DNA of 64,000 nt from a virus: positions 974-64,973 of the IMG/VR virus record IMGVR_UViG_2786546475_000019, one strand, 5' to 3'. The position numbers were made by a program, and so were the translations under genes. Below, piece after piece: positions 695-59,374 of this stretch (position 1 is its first letter; each line of letters begins with the position of its first letter). The notes below the pieces were generated by a model that was given only the letters and a program-made list of their open reading frames with translations, was not told the origin of the DNA and did no database searches.

Positions 695-739
695 GTATGC
701 TGTAGCGTTTGATCTTTGACAATTTGGTTTCTAGTTGGC

Positions 740-33403: not shown

Positions 33404-33612
33404 GCCAAAGCCAACTTGAAGCTTACGCCAGACAACGTAAGTTTAGGCCCAAGATGGAAAATGTTCAAATTTGTGAACAGTGCGACCACTTAATACGTGA
33501 TCGCTACTGTTCCAAATTTGGCAAGTGTCCTGACGCTCAAAAAGATTTCTTTAAAGCCCTTGAACGAAGTAAATGTCCTTTAGAGAAATTTCCGTCGCAG
33601 CTCAGCGAATAG
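33400..33612 (+). CDS. small zinc-ribbon protein
   Basis: CEQCDH...CSKFGKCPD. Confidence 0.35.
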   Translation: MSQSQLEAYARQRKFRPKMENVQICEQCDHLIRDRYCSKFGKCPDAQKDFFKALERSKCPLEKFPSQLSE

Positions 33613-33996
33613 AATTCTAACTTGCTTAGGAGTTAACTCTAACAAACGCCCGATTTCCGAATACGTATAGTATTGAAGTCGTAAACTTACAGCCCATCGC
33701 TCCTCGACAGTTAGCCTATCTAGGTCAAACTGATCGAGGAATTCTTCTGCACTTCTTGATAATTCTTCAATATCGCCTAACGCTTCGGTATCATTGTTTG
33801 TTTGCATTTTCTTTCGACGACGGTAAGCGTCAATACCTCTCGACCGTAGTAAGGTTCTTAAGTGTGAGATGAATTTCTTTTCCTCAACTAGCTCATGATA
33901 ATTCTCCCACGCTTGTAAAAATTCCAAAGATAGCGAGCAGTCAAATTTAGTTTCAAACTCTCGCAACAAGTAAACATAATCGTCGATCCTTCGCAT
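33580..33996 (-). CDS. HTH protein resembling sigma-70 region 4
   Basis: C-terminal YSEIGRLLELTPKQVRILFAELRRK. Last gene of the minus-strand nucleotide operon. Confidence 0.4.
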   Translation of the reverse strand: MRRIDDYVYLLREFETKFDCSLSLEFLQAWENYHELVEEKKFISHLRTLLRSRGIDAYRRRKKMQTNNDTEALGDIEELSRSAEEFLDQFDLDRLTVEERWAVSLRLQYYTYSEIGRLLELTPKQVRILFAELRRKFL

Positions 33997-37585: not shown

Positions 37586-38236
37586 TTAAACCATATTCAA
37601 AGTAATTGGAGGTTTGTCGCTTTTTAAAAGTTTAGCTAGCTTTTCTAACGCTCGCTTTTCAAGTTGACGAACTCTTTCTCGCGAGATATTAAGAGTTTCC
37701 CCAATAGTCTTAAGAGGAATCCCTTGGGCTCGTAGCCTCAAAACTAAAGCATCTCGACTATTTAACTCAAGAAAAGCTTTTTCTAGAGCAATAAGCTCCT
37801 CTTGCCATTCTATCAAATCCCTATCAAGACATTCTAAAGGTGTAACAGGGTTATTAAATAGCCCGTGTAAGGTTTGAAACATTGGAGCACGAGCTATAGC
37901 AGCTTTAGCTCTGTCAAGATGAGCTGGATTTGGAGATACTTTAATTAACTCCACCTTGGTTTTCATGTAAGTTATCATTCGTTGTTTCACCCACGGAGTG
38001 GCGTAAGTTGAAAACTGATAACCTTTACTAGGGTCAAATTTTTTGACCGCCTGACATAACCCACTCATTCCTTCTTGAATTAAATCGTCTAAATCAAGCT
38101 TAGAATTTTTCTTGGCAAAAGACACCGCTATCTTGATAACCAATCCTTGATTATCTAACACTAACCGATTGAGTGCTTCATCAGCTTCCTTTCTAGCAGA
38201 ATGATATTTTTGTAATAACTCGTCATTAGTATCCAC
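37586..38236 (-). CDS. RNA polymerase sigma factor (sigma-70 family, group 3/4-like)
   Basis: Region 2 (GLVIKIAVSFAKKNSKLDLDDLIQEGMSGLCQAVKKFDPSKGYQFSTYATPWVKQRM) and region 4 HTH (LKTIGETLNISRERVRQLEKRALEKL). Confidence 0.7.
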   Translation of the reverse strand: MDTNDELLQKYHSARKEADEALNRLVLDNQGLVIKIAVSFAKKNSKLDLDDLIQEGMSGLCQAVKKFDPSKGYQFSTYATPWVKQRMITYMKTKVELIKVSPNPAHLDRAKAAIARAPMFQTLHGLFNNPVTPLECLDRDLIEWQEELIALEKAFLELNSRDALVLRLRAQGIPLKTIGETLNISRERVRQLEKRALEKLAKLLKSDKPPITLNMV

Positions 38237-43911: not shown

Positions 43912-44387
43912 TCCGGCTCAGTAGTTCCAACGTATCCCATACCTTTGCCAAGAATCTTGTCTTGATAATAATACCATCGGTATGAGAAGATACAGTCTTC
44001 GAAATCTCCGGCCAAGCCTTTATAATATCCAGGCATAGCCAAGTTTGGAGGAGTAAGAGGGCCACGTCGTATGTAACACGGAGATTGATAAAGATACCCA
44101 ACCCGGTTCCATACTTCATGTAAAGCTAACCCTCTCTTATCCCGCTCCTTCAACAACGCTATCATATGCTTCAAAGTCCATTGATAATTTGAATCAGTGG
44201 AACGAACCCATTGAGTTGACGGGTGATTTGCGAAGCATGGTTTACACATTCCTTGACGCCAAAGTCCAACTTCGTCATGTGCCGTTGATAACATTTGGGC
44301 ACACTCAATCGGCATTTTTGTTAAATGGTCCGTGGCCATGTAGCTAGCTGCAAGGACCGGGTCCATATCAAGGAAGAAAACATTCAC
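43881..44387 (-). CDS. hypothetical protein (apparent GTG start)
   Basis: 168 aa. The first codon on the minus strand is GTG. Confidence 0.4.
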   Translation of the reverse strand: MNVFFLDMDPVLAASYMATDHLTKMPIECAQMLSTAHDEVGLWRQGMCKPCFANHPSTQWVRSTDSNYQWTLKHMIALLKERDKRGLALHEVWNRVGYLYQSPCYIRRGPLTPPNLAMPGYYKGLAGDFEDCIFSYRWYYYQDKILGKGMGYVGTTEPEWLLHLKGKL

Positions 44388-44770
44388 GCCCCAAGTCCAA
44401 GCGATTTGATGGAAGCCCTTTTGAGTGCTGTCAAGGTAACAACACGTCCAAGTAGCTTGGAAAGTGTTTCTTCGAAGTTATCAAGTTGCTCCGATAATTT
44501 GTATTCGAAGCCGTTCAAAAGTATCACTTCTTCCAAGTTCTCAGAAACCCAAGAATTTAAGTCTTGGTCTTTCACAAGATACTTACCGTCTTGAATCGTT
44601 AACTTGCCATTGATAGTTGGGCCTTTCAATTCGTCTCGCCAAATTTTCACGTTTTCAGGAGCGGTTATGTTAATTGAAGCAGCTCCTGATCCTGCATCAA
44701 AGATTGTTACCCGAACGTCGTTCCCAATTGTAAATGATTGCGACGCCCAGCGTTTAAGAGTTAACGCCAT
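44384..44770 (-). CDS. hypothetical protein
   Basis: 128 aa. Confidence 0.35.
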   Translation of the reverse strand: MALTLKRWASQSFTIGNDVRVTIFDAGSGAASINITAPENVKIWRDELKGPTINGKLTIQDGKYLVKDQDLNSWVSENLEEVILLNGFEYKLSEQLDNFEETLSKLLGRVVTLTALKRASIKSLGLGA

Positions 44771-48650: not shown

Positions 48651-48910
48651 ACCACGCTCCTTGTTGCTTTAGTTTCATCTCCAAGGCCCACGACAGGAAC
48701 TATCAATTCCCCGTTTGGGACAGGGACCGTGACTTCTTCTGGCAATTCAAACCAGTAGTTATAGTGTCGTCCACAAGGGAATTCCACTTTGATAGCTACC
48801 TTAGCTACTGAATCCCTTGTACTTTCTTTGATTCCTTCTTGGGTAATCATTGTTAAACTTTCTGTAAAGTGAGTATAGTCCGTAAATAAACACTAATAAG
48901 TAAAGCATCC

Positions 48911-48944
48911 TGCTCCCCTTTGCTCCCCTTTGCTCCCCTTTGCT
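48911..48944. repeat. Three tandem 10-bp repeats (tgctcccctt) in an intergenic region
   Basis: Copies at 48911-48920, 48921-48930 and 48931-48940, plus a partial copy. Confidence 0.85.
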
Positions 48945-48951
48945 TCATTCG

Positions 48952-49341: not shown

Positions 49342-49508
49342 TTGTCTCTCCGTACAGGTAGATGGTAATATTGGCCGTGTTCTTCAAACAAACATCTGAT
49401 AAAAATGTTCACTTTTGACATTTCTGTCCACGGCCCTTTAGAGGCCATCCAAATTACAAAAAGTCCGGCCCCCAATATTAAAGCCATTGATAAAGCTTTG
49501 TGTTTCAT
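49338..49508 (-). CDS. small membrane protein (start corrected to the cassette ATG)
   Basis: The AAAGGAATATCATG ribosome-binding site and start lie within repeated cassette A. MKHKALSMALILGAGLFVIWMAS. Confidence 0.35.
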   Translation of the reverse strand: MKHKALSMALILGAGLFVIWMASKGPWTEMSKVNIFIRCLFEEHGQYYHLPVRRDK

Positions 49509-49580
49509 GATATTCCTTTCTAAACAAGTAAACAACGGTCCACGCTCCATGATACTTGGAGCGTGGTACGTTGGCTACTC
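49506..49580 (-). promoter_or_regulatory. Repeated upstream cassette A (conserved boxes, variable hairpin, ribosome-binding site and ATG)
   Basis: Minus strand: GTAGCCAACGTACC, then hairpin ccacgctcca-tgatactt-ggagcgtgg, then GGACCGTTGTTTACT, then RBS and ATG. Confidence 0.6.
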
Positions 49581-49586
49581 TTACCG

Positions 49587-50147
49587 TTAGGTAGACTCAA
49601 ACGTTACGATATCCGGGTCTTGTAGCCCTCCGCCTAAGTCGGAAGCTTTCAACTCAAATTCGTAATTAACTCCACGGAACCCCGTGAAGTTATCACCGAC
49701 CCAGCCGTCGAAAGTGAACTCAACCCGCACCGTGACAGTAGGAGCGGGAATAGCTACTTCCTCAATGAATACGTCGGTCCAGCCTTGACCGCCAGAACCT
49801 CCATTAAGCGGGTTAGTGTTGTTTCCCCAATTCATAGGAAATTTTATAGTTTCCGTCACGCTCACGGGACCATTTGGGCCTTCTACCACGACAGTGTGGT
49901 CAACCATTTGATAAGTTCTCACGTGAACTGCAAGCCACTCCAAACGATTGTCAACCCACCAAGTTGCAGTTAAGTTAACTTTTGTAACGTCCCCGGCTGA
50001 GACTTCCGTGACTCCCATTGAGGCGGAGCTGTAGTAGTCTCCGGAAGTGCCGTGCACCGGGTTGTTGCCGCCTCCGCCTACTTGACCGTAAGCAGTTGTT
50101 GCTACGAGCAACAGAATAGTAAACAACACAAGTGATAAAATACGCAT
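49587..50147 (-). CDS. secreted hypothetical protein
   Basis: N-terminal signal peptide MRILSLVLFTILLLVATTAYGQ. Confidence 0.45.
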   Translation of the reverse strand: MRILSLVLFTILLLVATTAYGQVGGGGNNPVHGTSGDYYSSASMGVTEVSAGDVTKVNLTATWWVDNRLEWLAVHVRTYQMVDHTVVVEGPNGPVSVTETIKFPMNWGNNTNPLNGGSGGQGWTDVFIEEVAIPAPTVTVRVEFTFDGWVGDNFTGFRGVNYEFELKASDLGGGLQDPDIVTFEST

Positions 50148-50189
50148 AGTCTCTCCTTAAAAGAGTAAAGATTTGTGGTCCGTGGACCA

Positions 50190-51014
50190 TCATTTAGTAG
50201 GACGACACAATGCTCGTGTCTTCCAGTAGTTGAAGCTACGTTCCAACTCTTTGACGAACGCTTCCGCATCCATCTGAGTATCAGTGCCGCCGTCGCTGCC
50301 GAAGTGGTTGTGCAGCAACGTTTCAGGTTTCATCGGAGCATTCAGGTCTTCTAAGTCCACCCCAGCGTTGACTGAGATGATATTCCACCGCCCGTAGGCT
50401 TGTTCTCCGCTCTCATAGAGCACGTCTCGATGATAAAGGACGACTTCGACGTGGCAGGCGGCGGCCTTATTTACGCCGTCCAAGTATTCATGCCGACGTG
50501 GCGACTCGCCGTCACGTCGTGGCTTATACTCCACGATCAAAGTATCATTGTTCCGAAGCTTACGAATAGGGCAATAAACCCCGTTCGCGTCAATCGGAAC
50601 GATGATAACTCCGTCTCTATAGCCGGGACGCTGCTCGTGAAATCGGGCTTGTACCTGTTCAACGAGCACTTCGTCTGAGAACTTCCAGTGGGAGAACTCA
50701 CTATTGGCTGTCTGCCGACTAACGAAGTCGTGGACCGCTACGTCTGGAGCTGGGTTGCTCCAGTTCTGTTGCGTAACCTGCAACACGGTGGGTTCTCCAT
50801 TAGGGTGGATCGCCGCTTTGTCCCTTGGCTCGTAGTCATAAATGAAGGTATCTCCGTCCGAGGATTGAAGGGCATTACGCCCCGATCCATCTTCTTCTGC
50901 GTCGCCGTAGGGGACGTAGCCGTTTTTAAGAAGTATGATAAATTCGTCGTTACTTAACATTTGTTGGTTGTCAGTTTTCATCTCGCTCTCCTGTTTATTT
51001 AACAAGCTTTCCAT
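50190..51014 (-). CDS. hypothetical protein
   Basis: 274 aa. Confidence 0.4.
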   Translation of the reverse strand: MESLLNKQESEMKTDNQQMLSNDEFIILLKNGYVPYGDAEEDGSGRNALQSSDGDTFIYDYEPRDKAAIHPNGEPTVLQVTQQNWSNPAPDVAVHDFVSRQTANSEFSHWKFSDEVLVEQVQARFHEQRPGYRDGVIIVPIDANGVYCPIRKLRNNDTLIVEYKPRRDGESPRRHEYLDGVNKAAACHVEVVLYHRDVLYESGEQAYGRWNIISVNAGVDLEDLNAPMKPETLLHNHFGSDGGTDTQMDAEAFVKELERSFNYWKTRALCRPTK

Positions 51015-51283
51015 TCAGCAATAAGTTTAGCAGCTTCGGGTGAGACTTTCACCCACTGTTTCACTGAAATGTCCTCATGGGTTTCAACAGCTGCCGTGAT
51101 ACGTGTGTTGGTCTTCGGACCATTAGCCGCTAAGCCAAAGAGTCCACCGCACTCAGAACTCCAGTAAAGGACCATTCGAGCGTTTCGCAATTTGATAGGC
51201 TTTCCAGCTTCGGGGTCTTTGTCCGCCATACCGATTATAACGGCTCGTCCGTTTTCCCCGCAACAAACTAGATACATCGACAT
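50999..51283 (-). CDS. hypothetical protein
   Basis: 94 aa. Confidence 0.35.
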   Translation of the reverse strand: MSMYLVCCGENGRAVIIGMADKDPEAGKPIKLRNARMVLYWSSECGGLFGLAANGPKTNTRITAAVETHEDISVKQWVKVSPEAAKLIAEWKAC

Positions 51284-51284
51284 T

Positions 51285-51629
51285 TCAGTCTCCTCTTATC
51301 AATTGATAAATTTCTTTGTAAGTATGTACTGGCATATTATACTTGTCCGCTATATCCTGCCAGTTCTCTTCCCACCAGCTAAAAGAATGACACTGACCCC
51401 CAACTTTCAACACTCCAAAGTCTTGGTTGACTTCTACTTTGCGGCCGTGTAAAATTCCGAGTGTTATCAGTTTGCCGTAGCCGTAGCCGTAGCCGTAGCC
51501 GTAGCCGTCGCCGTCGCCGTAGCCGTCGCCGTAGCCGTAGCCGTAGCCGTAGCCGTCGCCGTAGCCGTAGCCGGTCCCGTAGCCGGTCCCGTAGCCGGTC
51601 CCGTAGCCGTCGCCGTGGTTACTTAACAT
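51285..51629 (-). CDS. protein with an N-terminal (G-Y-G / D-G-Y)n low-complexity repeat
   Basis: About 50 residues of GYGTGYGTGYGYGDGYGYGYGYGDGYGDGDGYGYGYGYGYG, encoded by a GCCGTAGCC tandem DNA repeat at 51477-51620. Followed by a 60-aa globular tail. Confidence 0.45.
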   Translation of the reverse strand: MLSNHGDGYGTGYGTGYGTGYGYGDGYGYGYGYGDGYGDGDGYGYGYGYGYGKLITLGILHGRKVEVNQDFGVLKVGGQCHSFSWWEENWQDIADKYNMPVHTYKEIYQLIRGD

Positions 51630-51726
51630 TTGATAGTTCCTTATAAATGATCAACTTTGGTCTTTGCTTCACGCGGACCGATGTACGGTTCCAACGTAAA
51701 TAAGTCATTGATATTTTCACATAGTT

Positions 51727-51933
51727 TCATCTTGCTCTCCTGTTTGCTCGCTTAGCGAGTCGTTGAGTTTCAGGATCGTCCGGAAGTATCACTAGCGATC
51801 CTGCGGTCTTATGGCCGTACACCATGTACCCTGTAGCACGCTCCGTGGTGCTACAGGTTGCACACGTCATTGTGTGCGGAAGTACCTCTAAGCGTTCACT
51901 ATCAATTTGTGTTTTGCAGTTTATGCAGTTCAC
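51727..51933 (-). CDS. DksA/TraR-type C4 zinc-finger protein
   Basis: CINCKTQI...17 aa...CATCS spacing and a basic C-terminus. Confidence 0.4.
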   Translation of the reverse strand: MNCINCKTQIDSERLEVLPHTMTCATCSTTERATGYMVYGHKTAGSLVILPDDPETQRLAKRANRRAR

Positions 51934-52178
51934 TCTTGCTCCTTCCAGAACTTGATATTTTTGACAACCCCTTCGGCGAGGTCAGCGATAGAATCTATCA
52001 CTTCTCGCTCACAACCGGGAATGGTGTAGAAGTAATTAAACTCCCCACCCTCGGTGAAGGTAACAAGTTGCGTGAAGCGACCCTTGTTTATCTTGGACAA
52101 GTGCCAGTAGACTTCGCGAACGCCTTCGTTAAGAAAAATGTAACAGGGAGTTTCGCCAATGACTTTAGTTTCGTACAT
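51930..52178 (-). CDS. hypothetical protein (start set at the cassette-like AGGATTATCATG)
   Basis: RBS and ATG copy at 52176-52190. MYETKVIGETPCYIF... Confidence 0.35.
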   Translation of the reverse strand: MYETKVIGETPCYIFLNEGVREVYWHLSKINKGRFTQLVTFTEGGEFNYFYTIPGCEREVIDSIADLAEGVVKNIKFWKEQE

Positions 52179-52188
52179 GATAATCCTT

Positions 52189-52695
52189 TCAGATTGAGTA
52201 AGTGCGAGATTGAAGTGCTTGTTTCGGTTCACGGCCCTTGTACTTAGTTCCAGGCTGCTCGAACCACGTTCCACGTGAGATGTGAATATCCAAGTCAAGA
52301 TATTCATACTTCGGGACGTTATAATAGTCTGCTAAGTCGTAAACGTCCAGATTATCAAGATCTGGAATTGGTCGCAACGTAATATGCGACAGTACGTAAG
52401 CCGCCACATTACGTTGCTTACGCTTGAGCGTTGGGTTAGCCGCTTGGACCGTGGCCCACAGCCGCTCAAAAGACTCTAGAGTTGGACACAACTCAATGAT
52501 AGATACTCTCTTAGACATTGGCCACGGCTCCCATCTTAAGAACCTTGGCACACATTGCCAACAATTTGGCGTGGTGTCGGGGAGCTTCAACATGGTTCTC
52601 GAACCATGAATCATCCGCCCCACATGGTAGCTTGACTCCCCCGGCTCGGAAGTATTGATAATTGTGCCGTGCGACACGGGCATTGTCCCGTGCAT
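52189..52695 (-). CDS. hypothetical protein (start uncertain; the 5' part overlaps the next gene by up to 185 nt)
   Basis: ORF-track entry. The downstream in-frame start MSKRVSIIEL (52518) would remove the overlap. Confidence 0.25.
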   Translation of the reverse strand: MHGTMPVSHGTIINTSEPGESSYHVGRMIHGSRTMLKLPDTTPNCWQCVPRFLRWEPWPMSKRVSIIELCPTLESFERLWATVQAANPTLKRKQRNVAAYVLSHITLRPIPDLDNLDVYDLADYYNVPKYEYLDLDIHISRGTWFEQPGTKYKGREPKQALQSRTYSI

Positions 52696-53062
52696 TGAGC
52701 AAGCACTCCCGTCTCGTGGCCCGTGGCGGACGAAGATGGTCGAATTTCATCAAAAGAACGCTATCAATGGAAGATTTCCCGCATCCTGCGTCTCGCAGCG
52801 TGCGAATATCATCCGCTGCGGCTTTGCGAGCGGTTCGAACCCACTCAATATGGGCCAGAGCTTCCCGATAAAGGTCGATCTGTTCGCTGATCCAGTAGCC
52901 AAGGGTGGCCTCAAAATCATGGAGAGTTACTTGATAGTCCAGAGTTCCGACCCAACGTAGCGGGGTGCCTGGAATGTAAGCTTTGTAGTCGTGGCCGGAA
53001 GCCTCGACCTCGACAGGCAAATCGTTGACGTAGAACATTCCAAGAGGTTGCATAGCTTTCAT
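52511..53062 (-). CDS. hypothetical protein (start corrected to the cassette ATG)
   Basis: AAAGGATTATCATG at 53060-53075 (minus strand). MKAMQPLGMFYVND... Confidence 0.4.
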   Translation of the reverse strand: MKAMQPLGMFYVNDLPVEVEASGHDYKAYIPGTPLRWVGTLDYQVTLHDFEATLGYWISEQIDLYREALAHIEWVRTARKAAADDIRTLRDAGCGKSSIDSVLLMKFDHLRPPRATRRECLLNARDNARVARHNYQYFRAGGVKLPCGADDSWFENHVEAPRHHAKLLAMCAKVLKMGAVANV

Positions 53063-53140
53063 GATAATCCTTTCAAGTGAGAAAAAAGTAAACAACGGTC
53101 CCTGCACCTCACGAGTGCATGGTACGTTGGCTACTGGCTT
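53060..53140 (-). promoter_or_regulatory. Repeated upstream cassette B
   Basis: Same conserved boxes as cassette A. Hairpin ctgcacctcacgagtgcatgg. Confidence 0.6.
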
Positions 53141-53144
53141 GCTA

Positions 53145-53570
53145 CTAAACAATTGCCCTCTGATTCAGTTCAGGAACAACAGTGTGAGCTATCAATATCC
53201 CAAGCTTGACGCCCCAGTTGACGAGTCTTTGATAAGCTTCGTCCAGCTCCGCCAACGTCTTATATTTAAGGGTCAGCCCGCTGATTAGCAAAGGCTCACC
53301 GTCGCGAGTCGCTCGCAACACGCATTTCCCGTCCCCGGTTGTGATAGAAAAGCTGCATTTATCAGCTAGTCGTAGCTGCGGTATGCCAACCATGTTCAAT
53401 TTTCGTCGAACGTATTGGCGAGCCGCCTGGGAGTCCGTAGCATACGTGACCTTGAGGTGCTCAATAATTTGTTGAGTGTCGGACGTGCCATACAGCTCCT
53501 GAAGTCGCTGATCGGTCTCAAACATCAGAAGTTGCTCGATGAAATTCCAAGTCGTGTGATTGTTAATCAT
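53145..53570 (-). CDS. hypothetical protein
   Basis: 141 aa, starting at the cassette C ATG. Confidence 0.45.
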   Translation of the reverse strand: MINNHTTWNFIEQLLMFETDQRLQELYGTSDTQQIIEHLKVTYATDSQAARQYVRRKLNMVGIPQLRLADKCSFSITTGDGKCVLRATRDGEPLLISGLTLKYKTLAELDEAYQRLVNWGVKLGILIAHTVVPELNQRAIV

Positions 53571-53650
53571 GATAATCCTTTCAAGAAATTAGTAAACAAC
53601 GGTCCATGCACCTCATGGGTGCACGGTACGTCAGCTACCAACTACTTATA
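53568..53650 (-). promoter_or_regulatory. Repeated upstream cassette C
   Basis: catgataatcctttcaag...agtaaacaacggtcc-atgcacctcatgggtgcacgg-tacgtcagctac. Confidence 0.6.
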
Positions 53651-54014
53651 CTTCAGTCCGCCACTTAAGCCAGAATTCCAACATAGCGTTAAAGTTGTGG
53701 TAAGTCCCGTCGTCTTCGACGTTATGATAATCTTCAAGGTCCAACGGGGCGAACTCCTCAAGTGTCTCACGCAACGGTCTGACGGTGTGTGAACCATTCG
53801 TTGAGTAAGAATATGAAACTTCCGTTAACGCCTCACATCGCACAATAAAGGTTTCGAAAGTTTTCTCAAGCCGAGATTGGAGCCTGCGATCTTTGATTTC
53901 TCGAACTATCAGTACCGGGGTTCCTGGTCCTTTGACCAATAACCCTTTCTTGATTTCGATTCGGTTCTCTTTGACTTCTCGACAGATTTTGAACAACATA
54001 GACTTAGCTTTCAT
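53646..54014 (-). CDS. hypothetical protein
   Basis: 122 aa, starting at the cassette D ATG. Confidence 0.45.
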   Translation of the reverse strand: MKAKSMLFKICREVKENRIEIKKGLLVKGPGTPVLIVREIKDRRLQSRLEKTFETFIVRCEALTEVSYSYSTNGSHTVRPLRETLEEFAPLDLEDYHNVEDDGTYHNFNAMLEFWLKWRTEV

Positions 54015-54090
54015 GATAATCCTTTCAAGTGAGAAACAGTAAACAACGGTCCGGGCTACCCGTGGGCAGCACGGTACGTTGGCTATTGAT
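54012..54090 (-). promoter_or_regulatory. Repeated upstream cassette D
   Basis: catgataatcctttcaagtgagaaacagtaaacaacggtcc-gggctacccgtgggcagcacgg-tacgttggctat. Confidence 0.6.
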
Positions 54091-54285
54091 AGACCTAGGC
54101 CCGAAGGCCCAGGATTAAATCCAGATTGTCAAAGATCAAAATTATCATTTGTGTCCCGCCACTGGCGGAAATGATATGATAGCTTACAGACCTACGGTCA
54201 ATCTATTCTATACTTAATATCGGCAATTGGGAAGTAAGAAAATAGATTATTTTTGAAAATAATCAAAACTTTATCATATCATTTT

Positions 54286-59082: not shown

Positions 59083-59374
59083 GGGCCAAAGACCTTGAGT
59101 TCTCTTTTAAGTCTCGGAACTGACGTGTAAATTAGTAAGCGGTTATCATTTTGCGTGAGCAAATGATAATTCTCGCGTGCTCCCGCGTGTCCCGCACGTG
59201 CGACTATTTAAATACGCGACGTGCGTAAATGATATGATACATGGTTTTCAAAATACTTGAAAATATTTTCAAAATACGGGGCAATCCTGCCCGGTTTTAT
59301 TCGTAGCTATAGGGGGAAAGTAGACTGTTTTACTTTCCAAAACGACTATCATATCATTTGTGGAGAAGTCCAAC

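Follow-up and report, generated by a model that had tools for sequence, protein, structure and literature searches.

In the early region of phage T7, cleavage sites lie 27–35 nt before the AUG of the next gene. The RNAs that Escherichia coli RNase III cuts usually span two helical turns, and internal loops within them confine cleavage to a single strand, with protective 3′ hairpins left behind (PMC1540722). A second described element, the promoter early stem-loop (PeSL) of T4-type phages, carries a promoter with the PST/T4 consensus TTTACW-N17-TAYWAT (PMC4122927). A third comprises the start-associated sequences (SAS) of Cluster K mycobacteriophages and their extended form (ESAS); for the latter, RNA pairing was unsupported and a DNA-binding protein was favored by Pope et al. 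2011 (PMC3203893), and the function of SAS and ESAS was still unknown in 2025 (PMC12699233). Here we describe a repeated cassette from an uncultured, tailed marine phage and compare it with these systems. The stretch that we analyzed (the window, 64,000 nt) corresponds to positions 1025–65024 of a 72,328-nt Tara Oceans sequence (ENA ERZ909121 k127_854715), and it contains four copies of a unit of ~75 bases in which a hairpin is joined to a ribosome-binding site (RBS) and a start codon. A model that saw the letters alone (the original prediction) had presented these units as promoters with a hairpin; on balance, we consider it rather likely that they are instead RNA-level elements, each composed of a hairpin and an RBS.

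The original prediction of a repeated cassette ahead of consecutive small minus-strand genes, accompanied at 52176 by a partial copy made up only of an RBS and ATG, was borne out. The window contains exactly four full cassettes, all on the minus strand and all inside 4.6 kb of one co-oriented gene string, as well as the partial copy, in which the RBS block matches and no hairpin is present, and a degenerate relic. They are listed here with their scores under R1, a covariance model built from the four cassettes:

54012–54088, minus strand: cassette c54, with hairpin 54087–54038, U-rich spacer, and RBS module and ATG at 54027–54012; R1 81 bits.
53568–53640, minus strand: cassette c536, with hairpin 53639–53591 (pairing extendable to 53643–53587), spacer, and RBS and ATG at 53583–53568; R1 95 bits.
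53060–53136, minus strand: cassette c531, with hairpin 53135–53087, spacer, and RBS and ATG at 53075–53060; R1 91 bits.
49506–49580, minus strand: cassette c495, with hairpin 49579–49527 (perfect 10-bp upper stem), spacer, and RBS variant AGAAAGGAATATCATG; R1 84 bits.
52176–52201, minus strand: partial copy, TTACT-caatc-TGAAAGGATTATCATG, no hairpin; R1 match 52245–52176, 19 bits.
50148–50189 (a 42-nt gap), minus strand: degenerate relic, a tGGTCCACGGACCa hairpin followed by acaaatcTTTACTcttttAAGGAGagact-ATG; likeness judged by eye.

The gaps that host the full cassettes are 75–83 nt long and hold one unit each. Read on the minus strand, the parts follow one another from GTAGCCAACGTACC through a variable 19–23 nt to GGACCGTTGTTTACT, an 8–14-nt U-rich spacer and (C)TTGAAAGGATTATC-ATG. 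The 15-mer GGACCGTTGTTTACT has four exact matches in the window, all on the minus strand and all at cassettes; the 5′ block GTAGCCAACGTACC is present at the four cassettes with 0–2 mismatches, and the RBS block TGAAAGGATTATCATG is found at the four cassette sites and at 52176–52191. With R1 run across the whole window with filters off, the four cassettes scored 81–95 bits, and the next matches were their reverse strands and the partial copy. No further cassette is present in the remaining 7–8 kb of the ~72-kb genome, as represented by the sister scaffold L089. The 5′ part of the partial copy overlaps the end of the upstream 109-aa open reading frame (ORF), and the relic retains GGACC...TTTACT...Shine-Dalgarno (AAGGAG-ATG) in cassette order. 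An exact 32-nt stretch is common to c54 and c531 (53053–53084 = 54005–54036), and c531 and c536 have their hairpin in common, such that the three copies form a mosaic pattern.

In all four copies, the whole unit folds as a single hairpin of ~50 nt (49–53 nt). The original prediction had divided each cassette into four parts, namely two sequence blocks, a short hairpin between them, and a block ending in ATG. The last block is indeed a Shine-Dalgarno sequence with its ATG, but folding indicates that the first and third blocks are not separate signals; they are the two complementary strands of the lower stem, 19–23 nt apart. This lower stem consists of P1 (AGUAG/UUACU, with a conserved G·U pair), a 1×1 C/U mismatch, and P2 (CAACG/CGUUG). 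Above P2 lies a 2×2 internal loop (UA/AC) that is invariant in 4/4 copies and located 9–10 bp below an apical loop of 4–7 nt, and the intervening upper stem, P3, comprises CC...GG and a variable 7–8 bp (9–10 bp overall). The unpaired stem positions amount to one symmetric 2×2 loop and two 1×1 mismatches, with no bulged bases, and the stacked length of ~22 positions is roughly two helical turns. Minimum free energies fall between −22 and −30 kcal/mol, and the z-scores lie between −1.3 and −4.8, the last being that of c495.

Conservation differs sharply among the parts of the unit. Invariant columns make up 40/45 of the flanks and RBS and 6/24 of the upper stem and loop (Fisher p = 1.4e-7), as well as 2/11 of the spacer, and this strong unevenness argues that the copies are not merely recent duplicates in uniform drift. 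Of the 78 stem cells in a structural alignment made by hand, 75 are paired (65 Watson-Crick and 10 G·U) and 3 are mismatched, and two-sided changes occur at four P3 pairs (G-C/A-U, U-A/C-G, U-A/A-U and C-G/A-U). A MAFFT alignment, in which one c54 base is misplaced, contains 3 two-sided pairs, a count reached by 32/500 shuffles, and when partners are slid along that alignment as a control, pairing falls to 32–57%. The earlier claim that covariation reveals selection on structure therefore holds in that pairing is kept through change, but with n = 4 the support is modest, and the apparent covariation in the upper stem is best described as suggestive, present but statistically thin.

Two observations bear on the strand on which the hairpin acts. 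Seven G·U sites are found on the sense strand versus one A·C site, which corresponds to G·U on the opposite strand (binomial estimate for at least 7 of 8 on the sense strand, ~0.035), and in c536 a CA>UG change within P2 creates two G·U pairs on the sense strand only. The c536 sense strand folds at −24.8 kcal/mol versus −18.3 kcal/mol for the antisense strand; in the other copies, folding energy does not separate the strands. Because of the G·U bias, and because the c536 change pairs solely in sense RNA, these data are suggestive of a hairpin that acts as sense-strand RNA, and it may also have a role at the level of DNA or on the opposite strand.

The region from 49.3 to 54.4 kb is a tightly packed run of small minus-strand genes. 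The hairpins are all intergenic, are oriented in the same direction as the genes, and begin 2–10 nt past the upstream stop codon. Cassette c54 leads a 122-aa ORFan (54014–53646); c536 leads a 141-aa strict ORFan that has no homologue among 5.8 billion proteins; c531 leads a 183-aa ORFan that starts at 53062 and not at 53152; and c495 leads a 56-aa gene that starts at 49508 and not at 49550, a length that some gene callers also give. Of the four start sites that the cassette ATGs were originally said to correct, these last two do change, and the partial copy adds a third by starting an 82-aa gene at 52178 in place of the mechanical start at 52307; the mechanical starts at 53570 and 54014 already agreed with the cassette ATGs. 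The genes that follow the cassettes (122, 141, 183 and 56 aa) and the rest of the string are mutually non-paralogous, and none of the genes of the cassette string belongs to a PHROG family. The original prediction had raised local duplication with paralogous flanking genes as an objection to itself; since no paralogy links the flanking genes, the copies did not arise as a side effect of duplicated genes.

The RBS is predicted to be unpaired with a probability of 0.61–0.65 in the four cassette genes; across 47 other genes of the same strand the value is 0.48 ± 0.11, and the cassette genes rank at the top of that distribution. The hairpin-less partial copy (52178), which has the identical RBS module, has an average predicted accessibility of 0.48. 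Because the cassette RBSs are predicted to be more accessible than the same module without a hairpin, an insulating role, in which the hairpin would keep the RBS unpaired, fits these values.

A separate, regulatory-looking region precedes the first cassette, within a gap of 271 nt:

54089–54285, minus strand: probable promoter/operator and leader region, with a AAATGATATGATA inverted pair, a sigma-70-like match, GATCTTTGACAATCTGG and a UUCG hairpin.

The window has exactly four copies of the 13-mer AAATGATATGATA, which includes an extended −10-like TGaTATGAT; they form two inverted pairs with members ~100–120 nt apart. One pair lies upstream of c54 (54284–54272, minus, and 54169–54181, plus) and the other in the divergent ParB/primase control region (59227–59239, plus, and 59359–59347, minus); given its −10-like part, AAATGATATGATA might serve as an operator pair, as a promoter element, or in both roles. 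Similar AAATGATAGGTTAGAA repeats are found in intergenic regions of the relative L031. Between the two AAATGATATGATA copies of the first pair is a sigma-70-like TTCCCA-17-TAGAAT (54233–54205, minus), and GATCTTTGACAATCTGG (54137–54121, minus) and a UUCG-tetraloop hairpin (54113–54094) lie closer to c54. Because this region precedes c54, the cassettes would most simply be internal to one transcript that starts upstream of c54. GATCTTTGACAATNTGG occurs twice, at 54121–54137 (minus) upstream of c54 and at 711–727 (plus) upstream of a 453-aa gene; each copy precedes one or two strong hairpins and then a GRAAGGAATA-type RBS, and it may represent a leader or regulatory element common to both sites. 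The 453-aa gene has in its 5′ region a 23-bp near-perfect hairpin (CGGTTAAACTCGCTACGCGGTCC...GGACCACGTAGCGAGTTTAACCG, 738–792), which has GGACC and GTTTAAC in common with the cassette stem and scores 16 bits with R1 (E = 0.28), and a second hairpin (795–820).

As an overall explanation, we tentatively favor an intercistronic hairpin for RNA processing, stability or insulation, coupled to a standard translation start. The original prediction had mentioned a processing or stability hairpin only as a side remark, and it is the predicted fold, together with a T7-like layout, that leads us to prefer it. According to this model, four cis-acting RNA elements would lie within a single polycistronic transcript that runs leftward through non-structural genes and begins in the 200-nt promoter/operator region. 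Each would contain a first module, a hairpin with a sequence-fixed lower stem and loops and an upper stem that is free to vary while paired, and a second module, in which a short, single-stranded, U-rich spacer leads into a standard Shine-Dalgarno sequence and start, UGAAAGGAUUAUC-AUG. A double-strand-specific endonuclease, most likely host RNase III, would cut at or beside the internal loop, 31–37 nt before the AUG (the distance found between internal loop and ATG in the cassettes); alternatively, RNase E would cut within the U-rich spacer. The cut would provide the upstream message with a protective 3′ hairpin and the downstream ORFan with its own short leader, and even without cleavage the hairpin would sequester upstream sequence and thereby leave the RBS unpaired. 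The unit would have reached the four gene junctions through duplication or recombination. Cleavage by RNase III specifically, which is proposed by analogy, is the more doubtful part of this model.

Several points weigh against an RNA processing or insulation hairpin. The lower-stem and RBS sequences are strictly conserved even though RNase III needs no fixed sequence, and a sequence-specific protein, or else gene conversion between copies, may lie behind this fixed sequence. The 3′ side of the hairpin (UUUACU and the U-rich run) would suit a weak terminator too. In the three copies other than c536, the antisense strand folds as well or slightly better. The covariation statistics (32/500 shuffles) are weak because there are only four paralogous sequences and no orthologue, and the four accessibility values are not independent since the copies share sequence.

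The main structural rival, although unlikely, is that the cassettes are leaky intrinsic terminators or attenuators, in which P2 and P3, followed by UUUACU and additional U's, would halt part of the host RNA polymerase before each gene and thus grade expression along the operon or tie it to antitermination. The stems are strong and GC-rich, 4–6 of the first 8 nt after P2 are U, a loose consensus scan flags c495 and c536, and PeSL stem-loops have been read as terminators (PMC4122927). The U-run, however, is broken up (UUUACU) and some of it is paired in P1, and a terminator has no need for an invariant lower stem or for internal loops that are never repaired. The placement of the copies also argues against termination: c54 is placed between the promoter region and the first gene, the other copies sit in a tight co-oriented gene string and not at the end of a transcription unit, and, with no promoter beyond the hairpins, the downstream genes would be silenced if termination were efficient. 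No clear canonical terminators were present for comparison in a scan of 26–46 kb.

A somewhat smaller chance attaches to the idea that the cassettes are operators, bound as RNA or DNA by a sequence-specific phage or host protein that co-regulates the ORFans, and thus a counterpart of SAS/ESAS. This idea would account for a fixed sequence where a structure-only signal would need none, and for the identity of the 16-nt RBS module in four places and its presence without a hairpin at 52176, a parallel to SAS, which likewise exists with and without ESAS (PMC3203893). As a candidate binding protein, the phage encodes a 128-aa protein (44384–44770, minus strand) with an N-terminal CsrA domain (Pfam E = 1e-9; PHROG 9500), and it is possible, as a smaller variant of the operator idea, that the fixed AAGGAU start module is a target of this CsrA homologue. 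No apical loop of the cassettes contains a GGA, and the second GGA forms part of the paired stem, a placement that is unfavorable for CsrA sites. A dimeric DNA-binding protein fits poorly because the half-sites are 19–23 bp apart with variable spacing and because the self-complementary spacer would be purposeless.

It is improbable, in our judgment, that the cassettes are DNA-level junction modules, that is, sites at which recombination between cassettes, either homologous (PeSL-like) or structure-specific (like the attC sites of integrons), moves ORFans in and out. The genes next to the cassettes are unrelated ORFans, the sharing among c54, c531 and c536 is mosaic, and the cassettes flank a block of unusual composition:

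49531–53520, no strand assigned: GC-rich island, GC 0.4965 versus a window mean of 0.448 (sd 0.019).

No other 4-kb block in the window is as GC-rich as the one between c536 and c495 (top 0.2% of windows), and a two-boundary likelihood fit drew its limits within c495, at 49531, and ~50 nt from c536, at 53520 (support intervals 49421–49991 and 53320–53940; log-likelihood gain 16). With one island only, this is a lead toward cassettes as markers of module junctions. We regard it as equally improbable that a non-T4 marine phage lineage uses the cassettes as portable modules at gene junctions and that inter-cassette recombination brought in the GC-rich ORFan island; were that so, a captured promoterless gene would be expressible at once, and the locus would be, in a phage, the counterpart of an integron cassette array that lacks a recognizable integrase. 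The resemblance to attC includes imperfect palindromes between promoterless, co-oriented, unrelated small genes, AAC...GTT ends in the conserved stem in attC orientation, a small unpaired spacer, and a variable paired top. Unlike attC sites, the cassettes lack extrahelical bases, their hairpins are 49–53 nt and not 57–141 nt long, and their G·U/T sites are distributed 7 on the top strand versus 1 on the bottom strand, opposite to attC, in which they are on the bottom strand (PMC5027507). Neither an integrase nor attI was seen in the ORFs checked here, and no recombinase was found in a search that covered Pfam scans of ~30 larger ORFs and precomputed Pfam hits for the genes called at 43.6–64 kb of the window and in the part of the genome outside it; because many ORFs gave no hit or, as with most of 12.5–33.4 kb and the small ORFs of 38–42 kb, lay outside the scans, absence of an integrase is not proven. 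RNA polymerase and RNase III were likewise not seen among the ORFs checked.

Population data also speak against shuffling. Several further marine samples contain strain-level copies of the phage that are 99.1–100% identical; every one of 26 strain-level contigs is colinear across the cassettes, with identical cassettes and no structural variation at them, a comparison confined to strain-level contigs, as there is no moderately diverged relative. The original suggestion of PeSL-like shuffling has in its favor the ORFan neighbors and the position of two cassettes at the edges of the GC-rich island, and against it the colinearity of these contigs. No single-nucleotide polymorphisms (SNPs) occur in the cassettes, but none occur in the 2–3 kb flanks either; the strain SNPs cluster at 50.5–51.0 kb and 51.5–52.5 kb, inside the GC-rich island, with none around it. 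An apparent P = 0.025 for SNP-free cassettes is invalid because the SNPs are clustered and the flanks are SNP-free too. Several independent short-read contigs (L028–L030, L097 and L098) start precisely 20 nt ahead of the ATG of either the 122-aa or the 183-aa gene; because of the exact 32-nt repeat of c54 and c531, these starts are assembly breaks and not RNA ends.

The cassette was found in no other genome searched. GenBank phages matched neither the region nor a single cassette, and Rfam gave no match. In IMG/VR, a search for a related locus gave no match, the exact 15-mer gave 22 single hits, none in a cassette context, and the gapped pattern gave 53 hits, all by chance. In Joint Genome Institute (JGI) metagenomes, the strict gapped pattern gave 0 hits, and the 3′-half pattern gave 26 loci, all explained by the RBS enforced in the pattern. 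GTDB genomes yielded a single chance hit, in a Pseudomonas coding region. Three relatives that have the ParB-primase-Dam core in common with this phage (L031, L032 and L034) contain no cassette-like repeats. The cassette family is genuine and lineage-specific. An unrelated 6.4-kb metagenome contig that supplied one of the 26 loci (UEXM01006505.1; 306–382 and 5725–5795) contains a hairpin-UUUACU-spacer-TGAAAGGATTATCATG unit and a second hairpin before AGAAAGGGATATCATG; the latter leads a serine recombinase gene, and the contig has no protein in common with this phage. Because the search pattern forced the RBS, this look-alike is probably a coincidence.

A promoter role for the cassettes, served by host sigma-70 or by the phage sigma factor and with a hairpin upstream, is very improbable: although TTTACT fits the PST/T4 PeSL −35, TATCAT matches 5/6 of TAYWAT, a promoter scan lists TTTACT-16-TATCAT at c536, and the phage encodes a sigma factor, this TTTACT...TATCAT pair, the sole hexamer pair in the cassettes that resembles a sigma-70 or PeSL promoter, has a spacing of 19, 16, 20 and 14 nt in c54, c536, c531 and c495, respectively, its candidate −10 overlaps the ATG, such that a transcript begun there would have no RBS, the flanks are complementary stem strands, no structural gene lies downstream, and a separate region lies upstream of c54. 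The original claim of a promoter is thus unsupported and rejected here, and so is the proposal that the cassettes are sites for the phage sigma factor. The protein in question (37586–38236, minus strand, 216 aa) does contain sigma-70 regions 2 and 4, but the cassette motif is absent upstream of all structural or late genes, and also from the rest of the genome. N4-type hairpin promoters, which have stems of 5–7 bp, were rejected because there is no ORF for a giant virion RNA polymerase (the largest is 1199 aa) and the cassette stems are too long, and a ParB/parS centromere was rejected because a variable, self-complementary spacer is ill-suited to a palindromic protein site.

The phage itself has no DNA match among GenBank phages, and the nearest hits to its terminase are only ~23% identical. 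Its gene products include a DUF5906 primase, a Dam methylase, two ParB-like proteins, DNA polymerase A and thymidylate synthase; beyond the strain cluster, the closest non-identical homologue of the primase has 47% identity. No tRNA or tmRNA is present. NCBI lists proteins of this phage as ‘MAG: hypothetical protein CL489_... [Acidobacteria bacterium]’, a labeling from which it is evident that the phage contig was binned into a bacterial metagenome-assembled genome (MAG).

Other features of the window are recorded here. The AvaII-type palindrome GGWCC, which occurs 154 times in the window versus 89 expected, is dense at 1–90 and 2232–2510 (9 in the first kb, 14 in the third and ~2/kb elsewhere); two 31-nt direct repeats lie at 263–325 and three 20-nt tandem repeats at 2273–2334. 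These clusters and repeats may be iterons, a pac site or protein-binding sites. Within the GC-rich island, the gene at 51285–51629 (minus strand) encodes an N-terminal half composed of Gly-Tyr/Gly-Asp dipeptide repeats with a 12-nt DNA period, and its repeat number varies by strain (114, 96 and 94 aa). At 48851–48951 (minus strand), three tandem 10-nt units (AAAGGGGAGC) occupy the gap upstream of a 67-aa gene, and a 138-aa ORF at 33580–33996 (minus strand), which ends the leftward gene string, has a weak match to sigma-70 region 4 (E = 6e-4).

Returning to the reading of the cassettes as intercistronic RNA hairpins, we compare them with known systems. Repetitive extragenic palindromic sequences and bacterial interspersed mosaic elements (REP/BIME) are likewise repeated extragenic palindromes in operons, and can stabilize upstream mRNA as 3′ hairpins. 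Unlike the cassettes, however, REPs are host chromosomal sequences with hundreds of copies in both orientations and no fused RBS. PeSLs (PMC2839356, PMC4122927) are similar to the cassettes in being conserved intergenic stem-loop units of ~70 nt, located next to ORFans in a plastic non-structural region, with repeats long enough to recombine (32 nt exact in the cassettes). The cassettes differ in lacking the sigma-70 promoter with N17 spacing that defines PeSLs and in that no indels between close relatives map to them, and the phage is not T4-like; because the defining promoter is absent, the cassettes are not members of the PeSL family.

The early RNase III sites of T7 (R0.3, R0.5, R1, R1.1 and R1.3) offer a further comparison. 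They, too, are paralogous hairpins between co-transcribed early genes of one phage, with stems of about two helical turns divided by an internal loop, a conserved stem base and a variable top, and the Shine-Dalgarno sequence and AUG of the next gene within ~30 nt. The upstream gaps of T7 0.3, 0.5, 1 and 1.3, folded with the same tool, gave an upper stem of 9–13 bp, an internal loop, an AU-rich lower stem and a Shine-Dalgarno sequence just downstream, and the cassettes have the corresponding two-turn hairpin (P1 5 + P2 5 + P3 9–10 bp), internal loop and intercistronic place before an AUG. The two sets of elements have no sequence similarity, the cassette RBS belongs to the repeat, and the cassette loops are small and symmetric (2×2 and 1×1), in contrast to the larger, asymmetric T7 bubble. 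With moderate confidence, and by analogy only, we suggest that the cassettes work like T7 RNase III sites without being homologous to them. If so, this widely sampled Tara Oceans phage arranges part of a non-structural operon in the manner of the T7 early region, with the RBS built into the repeat, and the locus would be a compact example of how newly acquired ORFans are made expressible independently of their neighbors.

The closest architectural analogue, an RBS motif with or without an upstream inverted repeat, is SAS/ESAS (PMC3203893). Both are asymmetric, Shine-Dalgarno-containing motifs a few nt before the ATG of non-structural genes only; in both, a subset of copies has an upstream imperfect inverted repeat and a variable spacer, so that copies with and without it coexist (in the cassette family, four with and one, at 52176, without); and in both, the associated genes are unrelated. 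They differ in number (four cassettes and one partial copy versus 11–19) and in sequence, the mycobacteriophage motif being a 13-bp consensus, GGGATAGGAGCCC, 3–7 bp before the start and the cassette module being TGAAAGGATTATC-ATG. In addition, the cassette arms keep their pairing and the spacer between them is itself a stem. The cassettes thus do not constitute a new class of mechanism, since comparable repeats are known in T7 RNase III sites, PeSLs and SAS/ESAS. What they provide are three corrected gene starts, an explanation, through the 32-nt exact repeat, for short-read assembly breaks, and, in R1, a clean sequence signature with which similar units can be sought in viromes.

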